Assembly: GCA_964467475.1 (NCBI GenBank)
Contig: CAYXQO010000008.1
Location: forward strand, 490 to 64,489
Reading direction: 5' to 3'
From: an uncultured Syntrophomonadaceae bacterium
GTDB taxonomy: Bacteria; Bacillota; Dethiobacteria; DTU022
Length of the DNA stretch: 64,000 nt
Position numbers and translations under genes: made by a program. Position 1 is the stretch's first letter. Every line of letters starts with the position of its first letter. Shown one piece after another: positions 3-12,870 of the stretch. Below the pieces are notes generated by a model. The model searched no databases, was not told the origin of the DNA, and saw only the letters and a list, made by a program, of their open reading frames with translations.

Positions 3-323
3 AGTGTGCACCGGCTCTTTGCCCGCGAGGTGCCCGCTGATTCTGATGGGCGCAAAAGGGGCCCGGACGGGATTGCGTTGCAGCTTGAAGAGCGGTTGAA
101 TGAATTTATCGGCCCAGGGGGAATAGTGCAGAGCAGGGAAGCTGCCCTACAGCGCGACATGCAGCAGGCAGCTGAACGAATTGAAATGCTCGAAGACCGC
201 ATGGAAATGCGCGAAAATCGCTTAGTCCGGCAGTTTACCTTTATGGAACAGTACATCGCCCGGATGCAGGAACAAACCGGGTTGATAGGCAGCCTTGAGG
301 CCGGGCAGCAGCAGGCAGAATAA
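3..323 (+). CDS. fliD: Flagellar filament cap protein, C-terminal part (5' end outside window)
   Basis: Coiled-coil C-terminus ...RLEMRENRLVRQFTFMEQYIARMQ is typical of FliD_C; directly upstream of fliS; frame open from window start. Confidence 0.85.
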   Translation, partial: SVHRLFAREVPADSDGRKRGPDGIALQLEERLNEFIGPGGIVQSREAALQRDMQQAAERIEMLEDRMEMRENRLVRQFTFMEQYIARMQEQTGLIGSLEAGQQQAE

Positions 324-356
324 AATAAAGAAATTAATGATTGGAGTGACTAACTG

Positions 357-782
357 ATGAGCGCAATGGGAGACCCTTATAAAAACTACCGCCGCACGCA
401 GGTGGAGACTGCCGATCAGGCCACACTTTTACTGATGCTTTACAGCGGGGCCTTGAAATTTTTACGGATGGGTCGCAAAGCGATAGAGGATAATAACATT
501 GAAGAAACCAACCGGCAGTTAGGACGGGCCCAGGATATCCTGTGCGAATTGATGGGGTCATTAAACCCCGATACGCCCGAACTTTCAGGGAGACTTTTTC
601 AGCTTTATGAATACATGCACTACCAGTTAGTGCAGGCCAATGTTAAAAAAGATGTGGCCATCATCGGAGAAGTGGAAGGGATGCTTAATTCGCTCCTGGA
701 AGCCTGGCAGGCTGTAGTTAACGAGCAGAAGGCTGCCAACCAAACGGGTGAGGAGAAAACTACCACCGACTTTAAGGGTTAA
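357..782 (+). CDS. fliS: Flagellar export chaperone FliS
   Basis: YRRTQVETA...LLLMLYSGAL...AQDILCELMGSLN...LYEYM motifs. Confidence 0.95.
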   Translation: MSAMGDPYKNYRRTQVETADQATLLLMLYSGALKFLRMGRKAIEDNNIEETNRQLGRAQDILCELMGSLNPDTPELSGRLFQLYEYMHYQLVQANVKKDVAIIGEVEGMLNSLLEAWQAVVNEQKAANQTGEEKTTTDFKG

Positions 783-980
783 GTTTGCCGGCAAAGGGTT
801 TGTTTTTTGCCGGTTAGGGGTAAATTGCAGGTGCCGGGGAAGGAGTCCCCGGCACTGCAGCCTAAAAAAGGAACGCTGCTTCTAACATTAACTTCTTCTT
901 TAAAAAAAGCAGGAATTTTTCTACTAAAAAGAGAAACCCCGGCAGTAATGATTTAAAGGCCCCAGGGAGGTTTCGCGTCT

Positions 981-2885
981 TTGAGTAAAATACCCGTAGC
1001 GCTAAAACTGGCGATTGTTTATCTGCCCGCCGGGCTTGCTATTTTTTTTCTAAGCGCTTACGAATGGTGGATTAATCTTTTAGCTGCTGTTTTAGCCCTG
1101 GTGATAGCAGTAGTGCTCTGGGCTTTATTGCCGGAAGGAAAGGATCAGGGGCAGAGGATTGCTGCTGTTAAAGGCGGCCGCAAGAATGACGAATTCCATA
1201 ATCTTTTGGCAAGTACCTCCGGCACCGGCAATACCATGGTATTTTCAGCGCGCAAAATCAAGGCCAGTACCCAGGCGATCAGGGAATCGCTTGCTGAAAT
1301 GGCGCAGGCCTTAGAAAGGGTCGCCGAAGGCAATACGAAGGTAGCAAGTTCTGTCGAAGAAGTTAACCGGCAACTTAAAACAATCGAAGATCAGATGTCA
1401 GCGGCAGTGGAAGCAGGCGAAAGGTTGAAAGAGGAGGCGGAGCAAACCGGTGCGGCGGTGGAAAAGGGACGCGGCGCTCTGGCTAATTCTTTAGAAAGTA
1501 TTGCTGAAAATGAAGCGGTAATTTTGGAGGCCGGGGAAGCTGCCGAAGAACTGGCTACTTTTTCTAAGAATATTTACAAAGTGGTTGATACGATTAAGGG
1601 GTTTGCCAAGCAGACCAACCTGCTGGCTTTAAATGCCAGTATCGAAGCCAGCAGAGCAGGGGAAGCAGGACGCGGCTTTGGAGTGGTGGCTGACGAGGTA
1701 GGCAAGCTGGCCGGTAATTCATCGCAGGCAGCCGAAGAAATCGGTCGCTTGATCAACGAAGCAGATGTCCTGATGAAAAGGGTCAAGCAAAACACCGATC
1801 ATACCAGGGAGTCCTTAGAACAGCAGAAAGAATATACCAACGCGCTGCGTGCTTCCTTTGAAGAGATCGACAACTACACTCAAACGACCAACCAGAGGAT
1901 AGTTGACATAAAAGGGGCTAACGAGGCCTTGTATGATGCGGTGGTGGGAATTAAGAGCGCAGCCGAGGAAATGTCTGCAGTGACCCGGCAGTCGGCAGCT
2001 TCCTCGCAGGAAATCAATGCCACTGCAACTAAGCAACAGGAGGCTGCCGGTGAAATCAGCGATGCCACTGCCAGTTTGACCCGCTTAATTGAAAACTTCA
2101 AAGATGAAACTGATAAGTACGATATCCCCAAGGTTGGCTATATTAACTGGACCAGTGAAATAGCCAGCGCTTACCTGTTTAAAAACTGGTACAGGAGAGA
2201 TACCGGCCGTGATGTTATCTTAGTCGAAATCGAAGGAGATGCCTTAAGTGAAATGTACGGTGCTTTAGCTTCAGGTGAGTTTGATTCCACGGTTTCCTGC
2301 TGGACTCCGGGGATGCATGAGCAGCACGTAGAAGCGCACCGGGACAGCCTCGAGGTGCTCGGCACTAACCTGGCCGGGGCAAAGATCGGGCTGGTTGTCC
2401 CCGACTATGTGAGCATCAACAGTATCGAAGAGCTTAACTCCGGGGCCGAATATTTTGGGAACACCATCTATGCCATCGAAAAAGAAGCGGGCGTGACCAG
2501 GTTGGCTGAACAGGCGGTCAAAGATTACGGCCTGGACTTTAACTTTTCTTATGGCAACAACCAGAGTGTGGTCGAGGCTATCGAAAAAGCGATGAAAGAA
2601 AAAAAATGGGTCCTCATTACCGGCTGGGTCCCGGAGGCGATGTTCGATCGGTTCCCGCTTAAATTTTTAGATGACCCCAGGCAGTCTTTCGGCGGTGAGA
2701 AACATATTAAGACGGTTACCCGGCCGGGGCTCAAAAATGATCACCCGAAACTTTACCGGGCCCTGCAGCGTTTCAGGTGGAGCGTTGAAGATGCCAACGC
2801 TTTTCTTGCCTTGATCAACAAGGGAGAGAGCCCCGATAAAGCGGCAGAAAAGATGCTTGAGAACATTGATCACCCCCTGGTTTAA
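981..2885 (+). CDS. Methyl-accepting chemotaxis protein with C-terminal OpuAC/ProX-type (glycine betaine) binding domain
   Basis: Two N-terminal hydrophobic helices; MCP hairpin [34 protein letters not shown]; C-terminal GYINWTSE...CWTPGMH...[11 protein letters not shown]...GWVP...KFLDDP motifs of OpuAC-family proteins. Confidence 0.9.
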
Positions 2886-3145
2886 CCCCTTCTAGCTGTA
2901 ATTTTTTTGTTTAAACCTATTTTTTTTACCAGCAGCATCCCCAAATAATTAAGATATGTTTCATTCTTTGTTGAGATATGAAGGTTTTTTTGTAATTTTT
3001 TATGTATTAAAAAAGGAGATTTTATTAATTTGGCGAAACCTGTAAATGTTTACAGAAATAACACGTCACGGGGGTACTGGTTATTAGCGAGAAGCATAAA
3101 CAAACCCGTCTGCCAGCGGGAAAAAATCCCAGCATTGCTCCTCAG

Positions 3146-4933
3146 TTGGAAGTGCTCTTTATCGCCGATCACTGCCCGGATGTACTCTGGTCTTATAACC
3201 TTGACCAGAAGTGCTGGAACTACATCAGCCCCTCAATCAAGCGGTTGACCGGGTACAGTGTGAAAGAGGCCATGTCTTTGTCCTTAGAACAATTACTAAC
3301 CCCGGTTTCCTATCATTTCTTCAAGGAACAATCTGCCTTGCGCCTGGAAGTATTCTTAAATGATCAGTCGAAACCCCACATGAGCCGCGATGAAGTGGAA
3401 ATAATTTTAAAAGACGGCTCTGTTACCTGGTGTGATGTAACCTCGCAGTGTATCCGCAACGAAAAGGGGGAGTTGACCCTGACCGGGGTGACCCGCTGCA
3501 CCCGGGATCCCGGGATTGAAGAAGAAGGCCTGCGGGTGGCGCTGGCCAAGTACCGCGATATTTTTAACTCTATCGAAGAGGGTTATTATGAAACGGATTT
3601 GCGCGGGCAACTTGTCTTTTTTAACGATGCAGCCGCCCGAATTTTTGGTTATACCCGCACTGAACTTGCTTCTACCAGTTACAAAAAGCTTTTTAAAGAA
3701 CCAGGGTTTGTTTTTCAGCATTTCAACCAGGTATATTTATCAGGAGAGCCCGAAAAAGGTTTAACCCTGGAAGCGCTGCGCAAAGACGGCAGTTCCACTT
3801 ACATAGAGGTTTCTATCTCACCTGTATTTGATGATAACGGCTCGGTAACCGGTTTCCGGGGACTGGCCCGTGATGTTAACGAACGGGCTGTTTTTCAGCA
3901 GCAGCTTGAGTATTACAGTATGCACGATCAACTGACCGGGCTTTACAACCGCAACTACTTCGAAGAAGAACTGCGCAAGATGAGCAAAAGCCGCGATTAC
4001 CCGATTACCATGATATCAGCCGATGTTAACGGGTTGAAGCTGATTAACGATACCATGGGTCATGAGCACGGCGATCTTTTGTTGCGGGCAGCGGCACTGG
4101 TGCTAAAAGACTCTCTGCGCGGCTCGGATGTGTTGGCCCGGGTTGGCGGTGACGAGTTCTCGGCGATCTTGCTGCGGGCGGACGAAAAAATTGCTGAAAA
4201 GGTAATTGCCCGGATCAGGGATAATGTTAGAAAATATAACATTGAACATCCCGAAATGTACTTAAGCCTTTCTTTAGGGATGGCTACTGCGCATGGCAGC
4301 GACACAGAGATGAGCGAATTGTTCAAGCAAGCCGATGATGATATGTACCGCGATAAATTTGCTCCCGGTTCCCGGACGCGGGGTAAAATTTTAAAGAAAC
4401 TGCTTTCCGCCCTGGAAAAAAGGGACTATATTGCAGATGGCCACAGCAAAAGGTTGTCGCATTATTGTCGCAAACTTGGCCAGATGGTGGGGCTTTCTTC
4501 CCGCCAGCTGGCTAACCTGGCACTTTTGGCCCAGGTGCACGACCTGGGCAAGGTAGCGATTCCCGAACAAATCCTGTTTAAGGAAGGGCCTTTAAGTGAA
4601 AAAGAATGGCAGATCATGAAAGAACACCCCGAAAAGGGCTACCGGATTGCCCTGGCATCTAATTATTTGACCGGCGTGGCCGGGTTGATTTTAAAGCACC
4701 ACGAGCGCTGGGACGGCAGCGGTTATCCCCTGGGCTTGAAGAAGCAGGAAATACCGTTGGAATGCCGAATTATTGCCATAGCCGATACCTATGATGCAAT
4801 GACCAGCCAGCGGGCTTATAACCGCAGGAAGAATCAACAGGAGGCTTTAGATGAGCTGCGCCGCTGTGCCGGCAGCCAGTTTGACCCGGACCTGGTAGAG
4901 AAGTTCATCAACCTCCTCCAGGAGCAGCAATAG
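3146..4933 (+). CDS. PAS-PAS-GGDEF-HD-GYP c-di-GMP synthase/phosphodiesterase (start uncertain)
   Basis: Two PAS-like domains; RGSD I-site plus RVGGDEF; VHDLGK and HHERWDGSGYP. Confidence 0.92.
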   Translation: MEVLFIADHCPDVLWSYNLDQKCWNYISPSIKRLTGYSVKEAMSLSLEQLLTPVSYHFFKEQSALRLEVFLNDQSKPHMSRDEVEIILKDGSVTWCDVTSQCIRNEKGELTLTGVTRCTRDPGIEEEGLRVALAKYRDIFNSIEEGYYETDLRGQLVFFNDAAARIFGYTRTELASTSYKKLFKEPGFVFQHFNQVYLSGEPEKGLTLEALRKDGSSTYIEVSISPVFDDNGSVTGFRGLARDVNERAVFQQQLEYYSMHDQLTGLYNRNYFEEELRKMSKSRDYPITMISADVNGLKLINDTMGHEHGDLLLRAAALVLKDSLRGSDVLARVGGDEFSAILLRADEKIAEKVIARIRDNVRKYNIEHPEMYLSLSLGMATAHGSDTEMSELFKQADDDMYRDKFAPGSRTRGKILKKLLSALEKRDYIADGHSKRLSHYCRKLGQMVGLSSRQLANLALLAQVHDLGKVAIPEQILFKEGPLSEKEWQIMKEHPEKGYRIALASNYLTGVAGLILKHHERWDGSGYPLGLKKQEIPLECRIIAIADTYDAMTSQRAYNRRKNQQEALDELRRCAGSQFDPDLVEKFINLLQEQQ

Positions 4934-4968: not shown

Positions 4969-6870
4969 TTGACCTCCGGCGGCAACAATGAAAGGAAACA
5001 ACCAGATAAAAGAAATAGTCCTGGCTGTAGCCCGGAAGAGGAGCAAAGTGCTTGCGCAGAAGAAAAAGGTTCGTCAGCAGGTGAGGAGAACAACCCTGCA
5101 AAACGGCGAATGAAAGATCAATTGACCCTGGAGCAGCTGCAAGGTTTTTTTGAGGTGGCCCTGGATCTTTTGTGCATCGCTGATACAGACGGCAACTTTA
5201 TCAAGGTTAACCGGGCCTGGGGAGATATTCTGGGTTATCGGGCAGAAGAACTTGAAGAGAGAAAATTCCTCGAATTTGTGCACCCCGAGGACTATGATGC
5301 AACTATCGCGGTTATGTCCAAACTGGGAAAACAGGAGCTTGTCATAAATTTTACCAACCGCTACCGCGCTAAGGACGGCAGTTACCGCTATATTGAATGG
5401 CGTTCTCACCCTCACGGAAAACTAATCTATGCGGCAGCCAGGGATATCACCGAGCGTAAAACGACCGAAGATGCTTTGCGAGAAAGCGAAGCGCGCACCC
5501 GGGCGATGGTGGAAGCGATCCCTGATACGTTTTATCTTTTCAGCAAAGAAGGATGTTACCGCGATGTGCAGGTTAAAGATGACGCTTTGCTTCATCCTGC
5601 AGAGAGAGAAGCTTACCGGGCCGGGCAGTTGATTGGGCAAAACGTCGGTAGCTTGCTGCCACCGGAAATTTCCGGACTTTTGCTTGAAACAATTAACCGG
5701 GTTTTAACTGGTGGCGAACTGCAGGTGGTGGAATACAGCTTAACCGTTAACGGGAGCAAGAAACATTTCGAAGCGCGGATGGTCGCCACAAACGCAGATG
5801 AAGTGGTTTCTATCGTTCGCGATGTGACTGCGACCAGGGAAAGTGAGGCCGAACTTAAGTACTTAAGCCTGCATGATCCTTTGACCGGCCTTTATAACCG
5901 CGCCTATTTTGAAGATGAGTTGGTTCGTCTCGAGGATGGGAGGCAATACCCGGTGACGATTATTTCAGCTGATCTTGACGGATTAAAATTGATCAACGAT
6001 GTTTTGGGTCATAAAGATGGAGACAATCTTTTGCTATCCTGCGCCGGGGTGCTTAAGGAATCTTTGCGCAGCTCTGATGTGTTGGCCCGGGTGGGCGGGG
6101 ATGAGTTTGCGATAATCCTGCCCCGGACCGGCCGGGAAGAAGGGGAAAAAGTGATTGACCGGATCCGGCACCAGGTAGAGCAGTACAACCGGCTTTATTC
6201 GGCCCTGCCGCTTAGTATTTCCCTGGGGTTGGCAGTGGCTGAAAGTTCGTTGCAGCCCTTAGAAGAATTATATAGCGAGGCGGACCGGGGAATGTATAAA
6301 GATAAATTACAGCGCAGCCGTGATGCGCGCGATGAAATTGTGCGGGCCTTGTTGGCTTCGCTGTTTTTGCGTGAGGGCATGGGTGAAGCTCAAAACGAGC
6401 AGGTCCAGGAATTTTGCATTAAAATGGGACAAAAGGCAAAGCTTAGTGAAAATCAGCTGGCCGATTTGCACCTGCTTGCCCAGGTATATGATCTGGGTAA
6501 AGTCACCGTGGAAGAAGGTATCTTCTACAAAGAGGGCAAACTGACTGAAGCAGAGTGGGAAGAAATCAGGCAGCATTCAGAAAAAGGCTACCACATCGCT
6601 GCTGCTTCATCTGATTTGTCCGGGGTGGCAGACTTGATTCTCCGGCACCATGAAAACTGGGACGGTTCCGGCTATCCCCTGGGCTTGCAGGGAGAAGAGA
6701 TCCCGATTGAGTGCCGTATTTTAGCGGTAGTTGATGCTTATAATGCGATGGTTAATAAAAGAAGTTATGGTCCGGTTTTGAGCACCCTCGAGGCAATTCA
6801 AGAACTCGACCGCTGTGCTGGACGGCAGTTCGATCCCGCCATGGTTCCATTGCTTGCAGCCGTAGTTTAG
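4969..6870 (+). CDS. PAS-PAS-GGDEF-HD-GYP protein with degenerate HD motif
   Basis: PAS domains; RSSD plus RVGGDEF; VYDLGK instead of HD; HHENWDGSGYP. Confidence 0.92.
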   Translation: MTSGGNNERKQPDKRNSPGCSPEEEQSACAEEKGSSAGEENNPAKRRMKDQLTLEQLQGFFEVALDLLCIADTDGNFIKVNRAWGDILGYRAEELEERKFLEFVHPEDYDATIAVMSKLGKQELVINFTNRYRAKDGSYRYIEWRSHPHGKLIYAAARDITERKTTEDALRESEARTRAMVEAIPDTFYLFSKEGCYRDVQVKDDALLHPAEREAYRAGQLIGQNVGSLLPPEISGLLLETINRVLTGGELQVVEYSLTVNGSKKHFEARMVATNADEVVSIVRDVTATRESEAELKYLSLHDPLTGLYNRAYFEDELVRLEDGRQYPVTIISADLDGLKLINDVLGHKDGDNLLLSCAGVLKESLRSSDVLARVGGDEFAIILPRTGREEGEKVIDRIRHQVEQYNRLYSALPLSISLGLAVAESSLQPLEELYSEADRGMYKDKLQRSRDARDEIVRALLASLFLREGMGEAQNEQVQEFCIKMGQKAKLSENQLADLHLLAQVYDLGKVTVEEGIFYKEGKLTEAEWEEIRQHSEKGYHIAAASSDLSGVADLILRHHENWDGSGYPLGLQGEEIPIECRILAVVDAYNAMVNKRSYGPVLSTLEAIQELDRCAGRQFDPAMVPLLAAVV

Positions 6871-10653: not shown

Positions 10654-12870
10654 TTAATGTGCTTGTTTTTGCTGCTGCATGATAAAGGATAAGAAGACAT
10701 GGACCAGTTCGGGGTCGAACTGGGTCCCGGCATTTCTTTCTATCTCGGTCAGCGCTTCCTTGGAGTTTGCCGCTTTTTGGTAAGGCCGTTCGTGGGTCAT
10801 TACGTCATAGGCATCGCAGATGCTTAAAATCCGGCATTCTAAGGGGATTTCTGTACCTTTTAGTCCCAGGGGGTAGCCGTTGCCGTCCCAGTGCTCGTGG
10901 TGGCTCAAGATCAAGTTGGCGATCCCGGCTAAGTCGGAGGAAGAAGAAGCAATGCGGGATCCTTTTTCCGGGTGCAGCTTCATTATTTCCCACTCTTCTT
11001 CGGTTAGCGGGCCCGGCTTGTAGAGGATATGGTCGGGAATACCTACTTTGCCCAGGTCGTGTACCCGCACGAGCAGGGCCAGATCGGAAATTTGTTTTGA
11101 ATCAAGGCTTAATTTTTCTGCGAACTTCATGCACAGCTCTTCTAAGCGCTCAATGTGCCCCTCTGTGATATAGTCTCTTTCAGCAAGGGCTGCAGTGAGA
11201 CTCTGCACTACACCGTTGCGCGCGCTTTTACTGCGATGCAGCTTATCCCTGAACATCAAATCGTCGGCTTGTTTGACCAGTCTCTTAAGCGGGATGCTGT
11301 CTTTTTCCGCCGTAGCCACTCCCATAGAAACGCTCAAGGGCAGCTCGGGGTTATGGTTGTTGTAATGGGCTACCTGGTAGCGGATTTGCCGGGCCAGGCA
11401 TTCTCCTTCGGTTTTACCCGTAAGAGGGAGGATTGCTGTAAATTCATCGCCGCCGACCCGGCCTAAAACGCCGTTGTGATCAAAGGTTTCTTTCAAGATA
11501 TCGGCGCAGATTTTTAGCAGCCGGTCGCCCGCTTCGTGGCCGATCGTATCGTTGATTAGTTTGAGCCCATCAATATCGATGGAAATAATTGTGACCGGGT
11601 AACTGGGTTCTTCTGCTAAAAATTTCAACTTGGCTTCGAAGAAAGCTCGGTTGTAAAGACCGGTCAACTGATCGTGATAACTGAGATAGTATAGTTTTTC
11701 TTCACTGTAATCAAGGGCTTCTTCCGCGGTGGTTAGTTTTTTGAGCATGCTCTCCATTTCCTGGTTTGTTTTTTTTAGTTCCTTTTCGTTCTCCGTTAAC
11801 TGATAGAAATATTCCTGGGCTTTATCAAGCAAACTGTTGATTGTCTCGGTGAGAAGGGCCATTTCGTTGTTTTTCGGAGCAGGCAGGCGGTAAGAGAGAT
11901 CCCTGTCAACTTCAACTTTGCGCAAATTGTTTTCAAGCTGCAGCATGGGTTTGTGCACATGGATATGGTTGTAAGCCAAAAAGAGCAGGGCGATCAGCAA
12001 GGAGGCCGTGCCGGCAAATAAAAATTCGGCGGTCATTTTTTCCGAGCTTCCGGTAAAAACACTAAAAGGAATATAGGAGGCCATGTGCCAGCCGGTATCT
12101 TCGATCGGCAGGTAGGCCATGTAGCCGTTTTTTTCTGCCAGGTTTATGCGGGCAACCCCGTTTTCAATATTGTCAACCTTTTTTTCACCGTATTTTTCTT
12201 CAAAAGTAACCAGTTCGCCATGTGGGTTGTATCCCAGCTTCGGGTGGGCCAGCAAGTGTCCTTCTTTGTCGATTAGGAAAGAAAATTCGCCTTCTTCCAC
12301 TTCCCGAGCAGCTTCTGCGGTTTCAATCAGGTGGTTGATTTTATCAATGGGGATATCGCCACCGACAACGCCCAGGAATTCTTTGTCCGGACAGTACACC
12401 GGGTGGGCAATAGTAAAGATTACATCATCCCGGCTGGCGTTGATAAAAGCTTCGGTGAAAACGGTATCACCTTTTTCCCTGGCCTGGTTGTACCAGGGGC
12501 GTTCGCAAAGGTCGAAACCAGGGGGTGGTTCCCAGCCGCTGGCATTGATCATCTCGTTTTCGGGAGTGCCGAAATAGATCGAGTTGAACCCATCGTTATT
12601 TTCTAAGAGGGAACGCAAGTAGAGCAATATTTCCTCATCGTCCCACTGCTGTAGAGCAATGAAGTCTCCGGCTGCCTCGATGGTATGGGTATGTTTGTTC
12701 AGCCAGCCGTTAATTTCTTCGCTTTTGGAGTGGACAGAAAGCTCCGCCGCCTTACGGGCTTGTTCCTGCAAATGCTGGTTGGTCCCATGATACTGGTAGT
12801 ACCATCCACTAAAAAAGACAATTATTAGGATGAAGGCGAGAATGTATAAGTTCCTGACCAAACGCTGCAA
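10654..12870 (-). CDS. dCache-HAMP-GGDEF-HD-GYP membrane c-di-GMP enzyme
   Basis: TM, Cache (RPWYNQA...FTEAFINA), TM, HAMP, RVGGDEF, VHDLGK, HHEHWDGNGYP. Confidence 0.93.
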   Translation of the reverse strand: MQRLVRNLYILAFILIIVFFSGWYYQYHGTNQHLQEQARKAAELSVHSKSEEINGWLNKHTHTIEAAGDFIALQQWDDEEILLYLRSLLENNDGFNSIYFGTPENEMINASGWEPPPGFDLCERPWYNQAREKGDTVFTEAFINASRDDVIFTIAHPVYCPDKEFLGVVGGDIPIDKINHLIETAEAAREVEEGEFSFLIDKEGHLLAHPKLGYNPHGELVTFEEKYGEKKVDNIENGVARINLAEKNGYMAYLPIEDTGWHMASYIPFSVFTGSSEKMTAEFLFAGTASLLIALLFLAYNHIHVHKPMLQLENNLRKVEVDRDLSYRLPAPKNNEMALLTETINSLLDKAQEYFYQLTENEKELKKTNQEMESMLKKLTTAEEALDYSEEKLYYLSYHDQLTGLYNRAFFEAKLKFLAEEPSYPVTIISIDIDGLKLINDTIGHEAGDRLLKICADILKETFDHNGVLGRVGGDEFTAILPLTGKTEGECLARQIRYQVAHYNNHNPELPLSVSMGVATAEKDSIPLKRLVKQADDLMFRDKLHRSKSARNGVVQSLTAALAERDYITEGHIERLEELCMKFAEKLSLDSKQISDLALLVRVHDLGKVGIPDHILYKPGPLTEEEWEIMKLHPEKGSRIASSSSDLAGIANLILSHHEHWDGNGYPLGLKGTEIPLECRILSICDAYDVMTHERPYQKAANSKEALTEIERNAGTQFDPELVHVFLSFIMQQQKQAH

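Follow-up and report, generated by a model that had tools for sequence, protein, structure and literature searches.

Domain order and topology of the fused receptor

The gene described here lies on the plus strand at positions 981..2885 of a 64,000-nucleotide stretch of DNA (the window) from an uncultured Syntrophomonadaceae bacterium (GenBank assembly GCA_964467475.1, contig CAYXQO010000008.1, positions 490 to 64,489). It is a single long open reading frame that starts with TTG at 981, stops with TAA at 2883-2885 and encodes a 634-residue fusion of a methyl-accepting chemotaxis protein (MCP) with an OpuAC domain (MCP::OpuAC). A first-pass annotation, made from the DNA letters, had described it as a chemoreceptor with a cytoplasmic glycine-betaine-type binding domain at its C-terminus. 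The Shine-Dalgarno sequence AGGGAGG (964..970, plus strand) is located 10 nt before the TTG, and the homologues in the family alignment share this start point, where they read M[ST][KR]IP. Of the 5.8 billion clusters searched at 90% identity, 31 have this architecture (72-25% identity, 601-680 residues), and the counts out of 31 given below refer to these family members.

In Pfam, the protein matched MCPsignal (PF00015) at residues 174-335 with an E-value of 4.9e-32 (111.6 bits, cut-off 34.6), followed by OpuAC (PF04069) at residues 384-627 with an E-value of 1.3e-49 (169.6 bits, cut-off 21.2). Both scores were far above the curated cut-offs, and positions 4-256 of the 257 in the OpuAC profile were covered, indicating that the domain is complete. 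The proposed order of an MCP hairpin and then a complete OpuAC domain was thus recovered. The same scan of the 634-residue protein gave no match to HAMP and no match to CZB. In NCBIfam, only sub-threshold likeness to named chemoreceptors and choline-binding proteins was observed. Because all of these matches were sub-threshold, the fusion protein belongs to no curated equivalog.

The kinase-control module of the MCP (1179..2114, plus strand) was delimited by Pfam, AlphaFold2 (AF2) and Foldseek. It consists of an N-arm (residues 67-225), a hairpin tip with the sequence RAGEAGRGF (225-233) and a C-arm (231-378). Foldseek matched this bundle to the Thermotoga maritima receptor 2CH7 and to models of Bacillus subtilis McpB. 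Residues 67-378 could be aligned to ordinary Bacillota MCPs from their post-HAMP start to about 20 residues before their C-terminus, with no net indel across the bundle against a Paenibacillus MCP and one 7-residue gap against a Sporosarcina MCP. Residue 67 paired with the first post-HAMP residues of both proteins, and the OpuAC domain starts at the point where an ordinary MCP ends. The two helices are 159 and 148 residues long in the AF2 model, giving about 44 heptads in total, which we take to carry the label 44H in the Alexander & Zhulin classification. By length and alignment, the bundle is consistent with the 44H class.

The conservation of the hairpin tip was 0.89-0.90, and N218, E222, G227, G230, G232 and F233 are invariant. 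A family-specific motif lies where the N-arm starts, close to the membrane (residues 71-100; 1191..1280, plus strand), and here conservation was 0.69-0.82 versus 0.5-0.65 in the middles of the arms. L75, L76, T79, F88, S89 and R91 are nearly invariant in the family alignment, and we infer that this motif is part of the input junction. The methylation consensus [ASTG]xx[EQ][EQ]xx[ASTG] was also searched. Together with conservation, it marked two methylation/deamidation-type motifs, ASSQEINA (Q343-E344) and ATKQQEAA (Q352-Q353), at 1998..2048 on the plus strand. Both are located on the C-arm, about one heptad apart. E or Q is found at position 343 in 29 of the 31 members, at position 344 in 31/31 and at Q352 in 31/31. 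With the MCPsignal match and tip motif, the long antiparallel hairpin and the E/Q pairs, this part of the protein is predicted to be a methyl-accepting chemotaxis protein.

Hydropathy was calculated with the Kyte-Doolittle scale in 19-residue windows, and only two peaks resembling transmembrane (TM) helices were observed, at about residues 4-24 and 29-51. In the AF2 model, which was built on the family alignment and has a mean predicted local distance difference test score (pLDDT) of 80.6, helices at 4-24 and 29-49 are followed by disorder at 50-65, the two long helices at 67-225 and 231-378, a five-residue connector and an alpha/beta domain at 384-628. The membrane anchor thus comprises TM1 (4-24) and TM2 (29-49) (990..1127, plus strand). 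A four-residue outer turn, Y-E-W-W, separates the two hydrophobic peaks, and Lys/Arg are present on both cytoplasmic flanks (K3 and K9; five within residues 51-75). The result is a membrane hairpin without a periplasmic domain, in agreement with the first-pass description of two N-terminal TM helices with virtually no outer sensor, and HAMP is missing in addition. The hairpin probably serves as an anchor that holds the receptor in the polar membrane array.

At the HAMP site of ordinary MCPs, a disordered linker was found instead (residues 50-66; 1128..1178, plus strand), with pLDDT <50, a mean pairwise identity of 18% and no HAMP match. The lack of a Pfam match, together with this short and poorly conserved linker of 15-20 residues after TM2, indicates that HAMP is absent. 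A subgroup of relatives (P0023-29) carries about 22 extra residues with 'SGDLT' in which Pfam detected no HAMP even at E<=1, and among the checked relatives only the distant P0147 has a HAMP domain by Pfam.

After residue 60, the highest hydropathy value was 1.11, far under the level of a TM helix, and a TM-like peak beyond residue 120 was present in none of the family members (0/31). The MCP hairpin has to be inside the cell to meet CheA and CheW, and since no hydrophobic segment comes after it, OpuAC must, on the predicted topology, be cytoplasmic too. Hydropathy, the AF2 model and the 31 relatives agree in supporting this location, as well as the earlier statement that no TM segment or signal sequence lies between the MCP and the binding domain.

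An artefact, either a fusion created by misassembly or a frameshift, or an OpuAC domain that is really extracytoplasmic, could in principle produce such a picture. Nothing was found in its favor; one relative is simply named as an ABC (ATP-binding cassette) substrate-binding protein by NCBI. On the other hand, the identical 634-residue protein is encoded on 5 independent contigs from different samples, and near-identical DNA is present in metagenomes of soda and salt lakes that several studies obtained from 2012 to 2022. The metagenome contigs of 3 runs each span 781-3100 and carry the gene without an indel. A stop or frameshift that would split the two domains in other assemblies was looked for, and none was present on the 5 contigs or in the 3 runs. 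Since the architecture is also shared by the 31 clusters, and since both the hydropathy of all members and the contact with CheA/CheW argue against a wrong topology, an artefact is very improbable. The lone difference in the 3 runs was at 901-902 (T>G and 1 nt missing). The site is about 80 nt ahead of the start codon, within a spacer rich in A and T, and may be a promoter-region polymorphism.

The OpuAC domain and its ligand pocket

The last helix of the bundle is joined to the first strand of the OpuAC domain by the connector KYDIP (residues 379-383; 2115..2129, plus strand), which was placed by the AF2 model and lies in a conserved junction. Residues 361-400 are conserved at 0.71-0.92, and P383, K384, G386 and Y387 are nearly invariant. 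The domain itself, of the type II substrate-binding protein (SBP) fold, is complete (residues 384-628; 2130..2864, plus strand) according to Pfam, PDB matches and Foldseek. The best sequence matches in the PDB were OpuAC of Lactococcus lactis (3L6G, 7AHC; 1e-44) and OpuAC of B. subtilis (2B4L; 3e-44). 2B4L was matched as two pieces in swapped order and is thus circularly permuted. Foldseek against the closed, betaine-bound L. lactis structure 3L6H gave a TMt of 0.89 and a root-mean-square deviation of 2.1 Å over 253 columns. This fit was better than that to the open form (0.77) and to the binders of choline, trimethylamine N-oxide (TMAO), dimethylsulfoniopropionate (DMSP) and ergothioneine.

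The betaine site of OpuAC is built from a Trp prism and from hydrogen bonds donated by a His and by the backbone of G437/V438, and W484 of L. lactis swings in upon domain closure (Wolters et al., PMC2861598). All six betaine contacts of the L. lactis and B. subtilis domains are retained in the fused domain and conserved across the core clade. The first cage Trp, W390 of INW (2148..2150, plus strand), corresponds to W330 of L. lactis and W178 of B. subtilis and is kept in 29/31 members. The segment C440-W441-T-P-G-M-H446 (2298..2318, plus strand) holds the second cage Trp and the carboxylate-binding His. W441 (CWTP) corresponds to L. lactis W377 and B. subtilis W225 and is kept in all 31 members, and H446 (WTPGMH) corresponds to B. 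subtilis H230 and is kept in 28. The L. lactis counterpart of H446 lies five residues past the second Trp; it is printed as H392 in the paper, and a recount gives 382. The backbone amides of G504-V505 (2490..2495, plus strand) match the carboxylate binders G437/V438 of L. lactis, with G in 28/31 and V or I in 31/31. The third cage Trp, W549 of GWVP (2625..2627, plus strand), is equivalent to L. lactis W484 and B. subtilis W72 and is present in 31/31. W390, W441, W549 and H446 therefore align with both OpuAC sites, and the earlier observation that the three cage Trp (INW, CWTP, GWVP) and the His are kept was well founded.

C440 is the sole Cys of the protein (2298-2300) and stands directly before the second cage Trp (SCWTP); Cys is found there in 29/31 members. 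The OpuACs of transporters carry Ala at this position (SAWLP). C440 could touch the ligand or render the site redox-sensitive, and the cytoplasm would keep it reduced.

With its complete bilobed structure, aromatic cage and carboxylate contacts, the domain is predicted to be of the OpuAC/ProX type, and we infer from these residues that it binds glycine betaine or a closely similar betaine with a carboxylate, for example proline betaine. The domain is not the SBP of an ABC transporter, because it follows a cytoplasmic bundle, has no extracytoplasmic signal or TM segment, and has no flanking ABC genes in the five genomic contexts.

The OpuAC fold family also binds choline, carnitine, DMSP, TMAO, dimethylglycine, ergothioneine and ectoine (Foldseek list; PMC10443332), and the receptor might recognize one of these other onium compounds and would then monitor that metabolite inside the cell. 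A second clade of MCP→OpuAC proteins does have an altered pocket, indicating that specificity has shifted within this architecture. However, the clade of the present protein keeps the three Trp, the His and the G-V loop that grip the betaine carboxylate, and the best sequence and fold matches were betaine-specific OpuACs, not ChoX, OpuBC, TmoX or EgtUC. A ligand of this other kind is therefore unlikely.

The second clade comprises P0030, P0031, P0141-P0145, P0148-P0150 and L091:1522-3501. Its first aromatic pocket position is variable (Y/F/W/S), it carries APWxP and TGWQPH as motifs, and EKEAGV has given way to an Arg-rich loop (ERKTFVG or QRRTxIG). One member adjoins a molybdenum hydroxylase (Fer2/FAD/MoCoBD) and a gene of the aromatic-amino-acid-lyase family. 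These features point to another ligand in the cytoplasm, perhaps an aromatic amino acid betaine.

Distribution, origin and genomic context of the fusion

The spread of the architecture was surveyed, and it proved to be rare. In addition to the 31 clusters at 90% identity, a profile search of 1.84 billion representatives at 50% identity yielded about 18 collinear MCP→OpuAC clusters. The named members are Desulfitibacter sp. BRH_c19, metagenome-assembled genomes (MAGs) labeled 'Clostridia' and 'Bacillota', and one Halanaerobiales MAG; all of these are anaerobic Bacillota or Halanaerobiales. When genome contigs were searched with the MCP tip pattern, the Halanaerobiales MAG (L007) was the only fused relative among the matches listed, which otherwise were ordinary MCPs. 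Profile matches of about 870 residues that consisted of two stretches were rejected as family members, as they were double-MCPsignal proteins or permease plus tandem-OpuAC transporters. Many proteins of about 870 residues (P0154-P0179) have two complete tandem MCPsignal domains, some of them with HAMP, and are unrelated to OpuAC.

The automatic annotation of JGI detects both domains, and the architecture is visible in databases, where it is uncharacterized. One fused receptor (P0015, NCBI MGM0652632.1) is annotated as 'glycine betaine ABC transporter substrate-binding protein', and others as 'hypothetical protein'. Such misannotation of relatives would hide the family from chemoreceptor surveys that are based on product names.

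No stand-alone OpuAC protein was more than about 42% identical to the fused domain. For the OpuAC domain, a maximum-likelihood tree was constructed with the fused domains and 36 stand-alone binding proteins. The clade of the present protein was monophyletic (SH-aLRT 96), and 35 of the 36 stand-alone proteins formed a clade of their own (96). All fused domains, together with one short stand-alone sequence, were placed on one side of a supported branch. The tree is thus compatible with a single ancient fusion and not with a recent capture, and the fusion is, to judge from these sequences, old and maintained. One 260-residue protein, P0190, is a stand-alone OpuAC whose domain begins at residue 2, without a signal peptide or lipobox. 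It falls outside the clade of 35 stand-alone proteins, and its place beside the fused clades is not resolved; it represents either part of a fused gene or an OpuAC that is free in the cytoplasm.

Upstream of the receptor gene, the 3′ end of fliD (3-323) and fliS (357-782) were identified (3..782, plus strand; Pfam FliD_C 9.3e-11 and FliS 1.1e-37). In a 60% identical relative, the gene order is again flagellin-flaG-fliD-fliS-mcp::opuAC. In Desulfitibacter, the fused gene adjoins the gene of a soluble MCP, and the remaining contexts are unrelated. The position of the gene after late flagellar genes fits a role in motility. Between fliS and the receptor gene, two GC-rich hairpins are present at 787-858, namely GCCGGCAAA...TTTGCCGG and GTGCCGGGGA...TCCCCGGCAC. 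They were not called by the terminator scan because no T-run follows them, and the promoter and terminator scan of 700-3200 gave no candidate above shuffled expectation.

Within 10 kb downstream, three hybrids of GGDEF and HD-GYP are encoded, at 3146-4933, 4969-6870 and, on the minus strand, 10654-12870. Two of these proteins have PAS sensors and one has dCache. Genes for the turnover of cyclic di-GMP thus neighbor the flagellar and chemotaxis genes.

Proposed signaling and comparison with known systems

The degree of conservation differed strongly along the protein. Mean pairwise identity in the core clade was 66% for the OpuAC domain, 59% for the hairpin tip region and about 48% for the helical arms, compared with 33% for the TM hairpin and 18% for the linker. 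OpuAC is thus the best-conserved part; of the folded regions, the TM hairpin varies the most. A conservation profile in 10-residue steps showed three peaks outside OpuAC: the tip (201-240), the start of the N-arm (71-100) and the last part of the C-arm plus the connector (361-390). The start of the N-arm and the end of the C-arm are side by side in the four-helix MCP bundle. Such peaks are expected if OpuAC is an input that is coupled at the membrane-proximal end of the bundle, and they are unlike those of a passive appendage.

OpuAC might nevertheless be a structural, clustering or localization module or a betaine buffer, with signaling that is constitutive or runs through the membrane hairpin, for example in response to membrane state. 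No HAMP or known relay links the bundle with OpuAC, confidence in the inter-domain model is low, and the C-terminus of TlpD is needed for localization, not for sensing (PMC13001251). However, the ligand contacts are kept across about 45% sequence divergence, with OpuAC the most and the TM hairpin the least conserved. The junction and the neighboring N-arm start are conserved as well, and a scaffold would not preserve the Trp prism, the His and the backbone loop. A role other than input is therefore quite improbable.

We consider it reasonably likely that the gene encodes a membrane-tethered, long (about 44-heptad) Bacillota-type chemoreceptor, which has lost any outer sensor and HAMP and which senses through its C-terminal cytoplasmic OpuAC domain. 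In this receptor, betaine would bind between the two lobes, and the domain would close in the manner of a Venus flytrap. Lobe I would hang from the last helix by the rigid, conserved five-residue connector. Closure should then shift or stiffen the helix end of the C-arm against the conserved start of the N-arm, as in HAMP-like signaling. Such an effect on helix packing is to be expected because the connector has five residues and the end of the C-arm lies beside the conserved N-arm start. The altered packing would arise in the part of the four-helix bundle nearest the membrane, where HAMP normally gives its input, and the control of CheA would change at the hairpin tip, 22 heptads away. The conserved EQ pairs on the C-arm would permit adaptation by CheR, CheB or CheD. 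The output would be taxis guided by the cytoplasmic betaine level.

Canonical OpuAC domains have a micromolar affinity for betaine. The OpuACs of L. lactis and B. subtilis, which have the same pocket, bind betaine with high affinity (PMC2861598). This speaks against a cytoplasmic betaine sensor, since a high-affinity pocket means that the cytoplasmic copy could stay saturated in a betaine accumulator. Two further observations weigh on the same side. The five genomic contexts showed no conserved linkage to genes of betaine transport or catabolism, and the AF2 inter-domain geometry is unreliable (predicted template modeling score, pTM, 0.51), so that the coupling path was drawn solely from conservation.

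Within the model of a cytoplasmic betaine sensor, transport-coupled betaine taxis, in which uptake is read out quickly, ranks first as the most plausible form and is at least as likely as osmotaxis. A read-out of influx at a low free pool would avoid both saturation and slow filling of the pool. It may track betaine as an osmoprotectant or as a source of methyl groups or carbon. In soda and salt lakes, betaine is among the major solutes and substrates.

Osmotaxis, the reading put forward in the first-pass annotation, would need a domain with much weaker affinity that reads how large or concentrated the cytoplasmic betaine pool is and so allows navigation along salinity gradients. Under hyperosmotic stress this pool goes up as betaine is taken up or synthesized, and at once as water leaves the cell. 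The host occurs in soda and salt lakes, related fusions are present in Halanaerobiales, and the OpuAC domain is cytoplasmic. Moreover, differences in OpuAC affinity arise outside an identical pocket, so that the affinity would be tunable without changes in the contacts (Wolters et al., PMC2861598). The pocket, however, is identical to that of high-affinity transporter domains and would be saturated at tens to hundreds of mM betaine. Chemotactic comparison and adaptation run in seconds, whereas uptake and synthesis change the pool in minutes. No osmoregulatory gene is adjacent in the five contexts. Osmotaxis of this kind is thus possible but doubtful.

After an osmotic shift, water moves in less than a second, and the concentration of an accumulated solute then changes at once. 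A low-affinity OpuAC on an adapting, log-sensing array might in this way act as a volume sensor that reads the fractional change of accumulated, non-metabolized betaine and so senses osmolarity over time. Such a sensor requires a dissociation constant near the pool, at tens of mM or more, which would have to be tuned outside the conserved pocket, and we regard it as improbable. To our knowledge, a dedicated molecular receptor for osmotaxis has never been identified.

These results indicate that a chemoreceptor with a C-terminal cytoplasmic SBP-type sensor is a real, conserved and rare design; its function is deduced. A whole binding domain of the ABC type has come to lie in the cytoplasm, attached at the far end of the bundle, and its ligand site has stayed intact over long evolution. 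Relatives that are labeled as ABC transporter binding proteins or as hypothetical proteins can be corrected in the databases. If the C-terminal OpuAC domain does signal as proposed, the Venus-flytrap motion of an SBP can drive an MCP bundle directly, without a TM or HAMP relay, and the protein would offer a compact natural design for biosensor engineering. Halophilic and alkaliphilic anaerobes would then steer by an internal solute, with the uptake of an osmoprotectant or methyl substrate tied to motility, and the receptor would be a testable candidate for the long-sought receptor of osmotaxis.

The input of chemoreceptors normally arrives through an N-terminal sensor and HAMP. Our literature search, whose coverage did not extend to the Collins 2014 and Ortega 2017 reviews, where a table entry is possible, found no account of an MCPsignal + OpuAC fusion; it also found nothing that pairs a cytoplasmic chemoreceptor with glycine betaine. 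Of the known MCPs, those of the 44H type, such as B. subtilis McpB and T. maritima TM1143 (2CH7), have the same module length, tip sequence and EQ-motif region as the present receptor. In contrast to it, they carry a periplasmic sensor and HAMP and end about 20 residues past the bundle, whereas here both are missing and the chain continues into OpuAC. Among dCache chemoreceptors, Sinorhizobium meliloti McpX and Pseudomonas aeruginosa PctD respond to choline and glycine betaine (PMC10443332). Their sensor, a Cache domain at the N-terminus, faces the periplasm, and the signal passes inward by way of TM2 and HAMP, whereas the present protein has neither an outer sensor nor HAMP.

The fused domain resembles L. 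lactis OpuAC (3L6G, 3L6H, 7AHC) and B. subtilis OpuAC (2B4L) in its fold and its contacts, with 32-38% identity. As in L. lactis OpuABC, the OpuAC is tethered at its N-terminus to a preceding polypeptide, and no signal peptide is needed. In contrast to the OpuACs of transporters, which are extracytoplasmic and feed an ABC translocator, it follows a cytoplasmic MCP bundle and belongs to a separate clade. It also has Cys for Ala before the second cage Trp, and Glu for His after the third (GWVPE versus GWSPH).

SBPs have been described as extracytosolic proteins that feed chemoreceptors from outside (PMC8050422, PMC9602780), and CosB-CosT is the sole link between OpuAC and a chemoreceptor in reviews of SBP signaling (PMC8050422, PMC10443332). 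CosB of Halobacterium salinarum is an OpuAC-family protein that gives the CosT transducer its specificity for glycine betaine, choline and carnitine (Matilla et al. 2021, PMC8050422). Both systems thus have an OpuAC-family protein that supplies ligand specificity to a chemotaxis transducer. However, CosB is a separate protein that is secreted, anchored and acts on the extracellular domain of CosT, whereas the present domain is fused C-terminally, is predicted to be cytoplasmic and belongs to a receptor without an extracellular domain. The protein is therefore not a case of binding-protein-mediated chemotaxis as in CosB/CosT or MBP/Tar, as its SBP is fused and cytoplasmic and its outer loop has 4 residues.

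The first-pass annotation had regarded the architecture as inverted. This description holds in that the sensor is C-terminal and cytoplasmic, but such a layout is less without precedent than implied, because the Helicobacter pylori receptor TlpD has a cytoplasmic CZB sensor C-terminal to its MA domain (PMC13001251). Archaeal surveys also mention C-terminal cytoplasmic sensors in general terms (PMC9680633). TlpD is a soluble protein, and its CZB domain is small, helical and zinc-binding, whereas the present receptor has a bilobed SBP fold of 250 residues and is membrane-anchored. Without a CZB match and with a TM hairpin, it is not a member of the TlpD-like, CZB-type receptors, and the position of the sensor is the only feature in common. 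In this respect, TlpD and the other CZB receptors are the best precedent for an input from the C-terminal end of the bundle.

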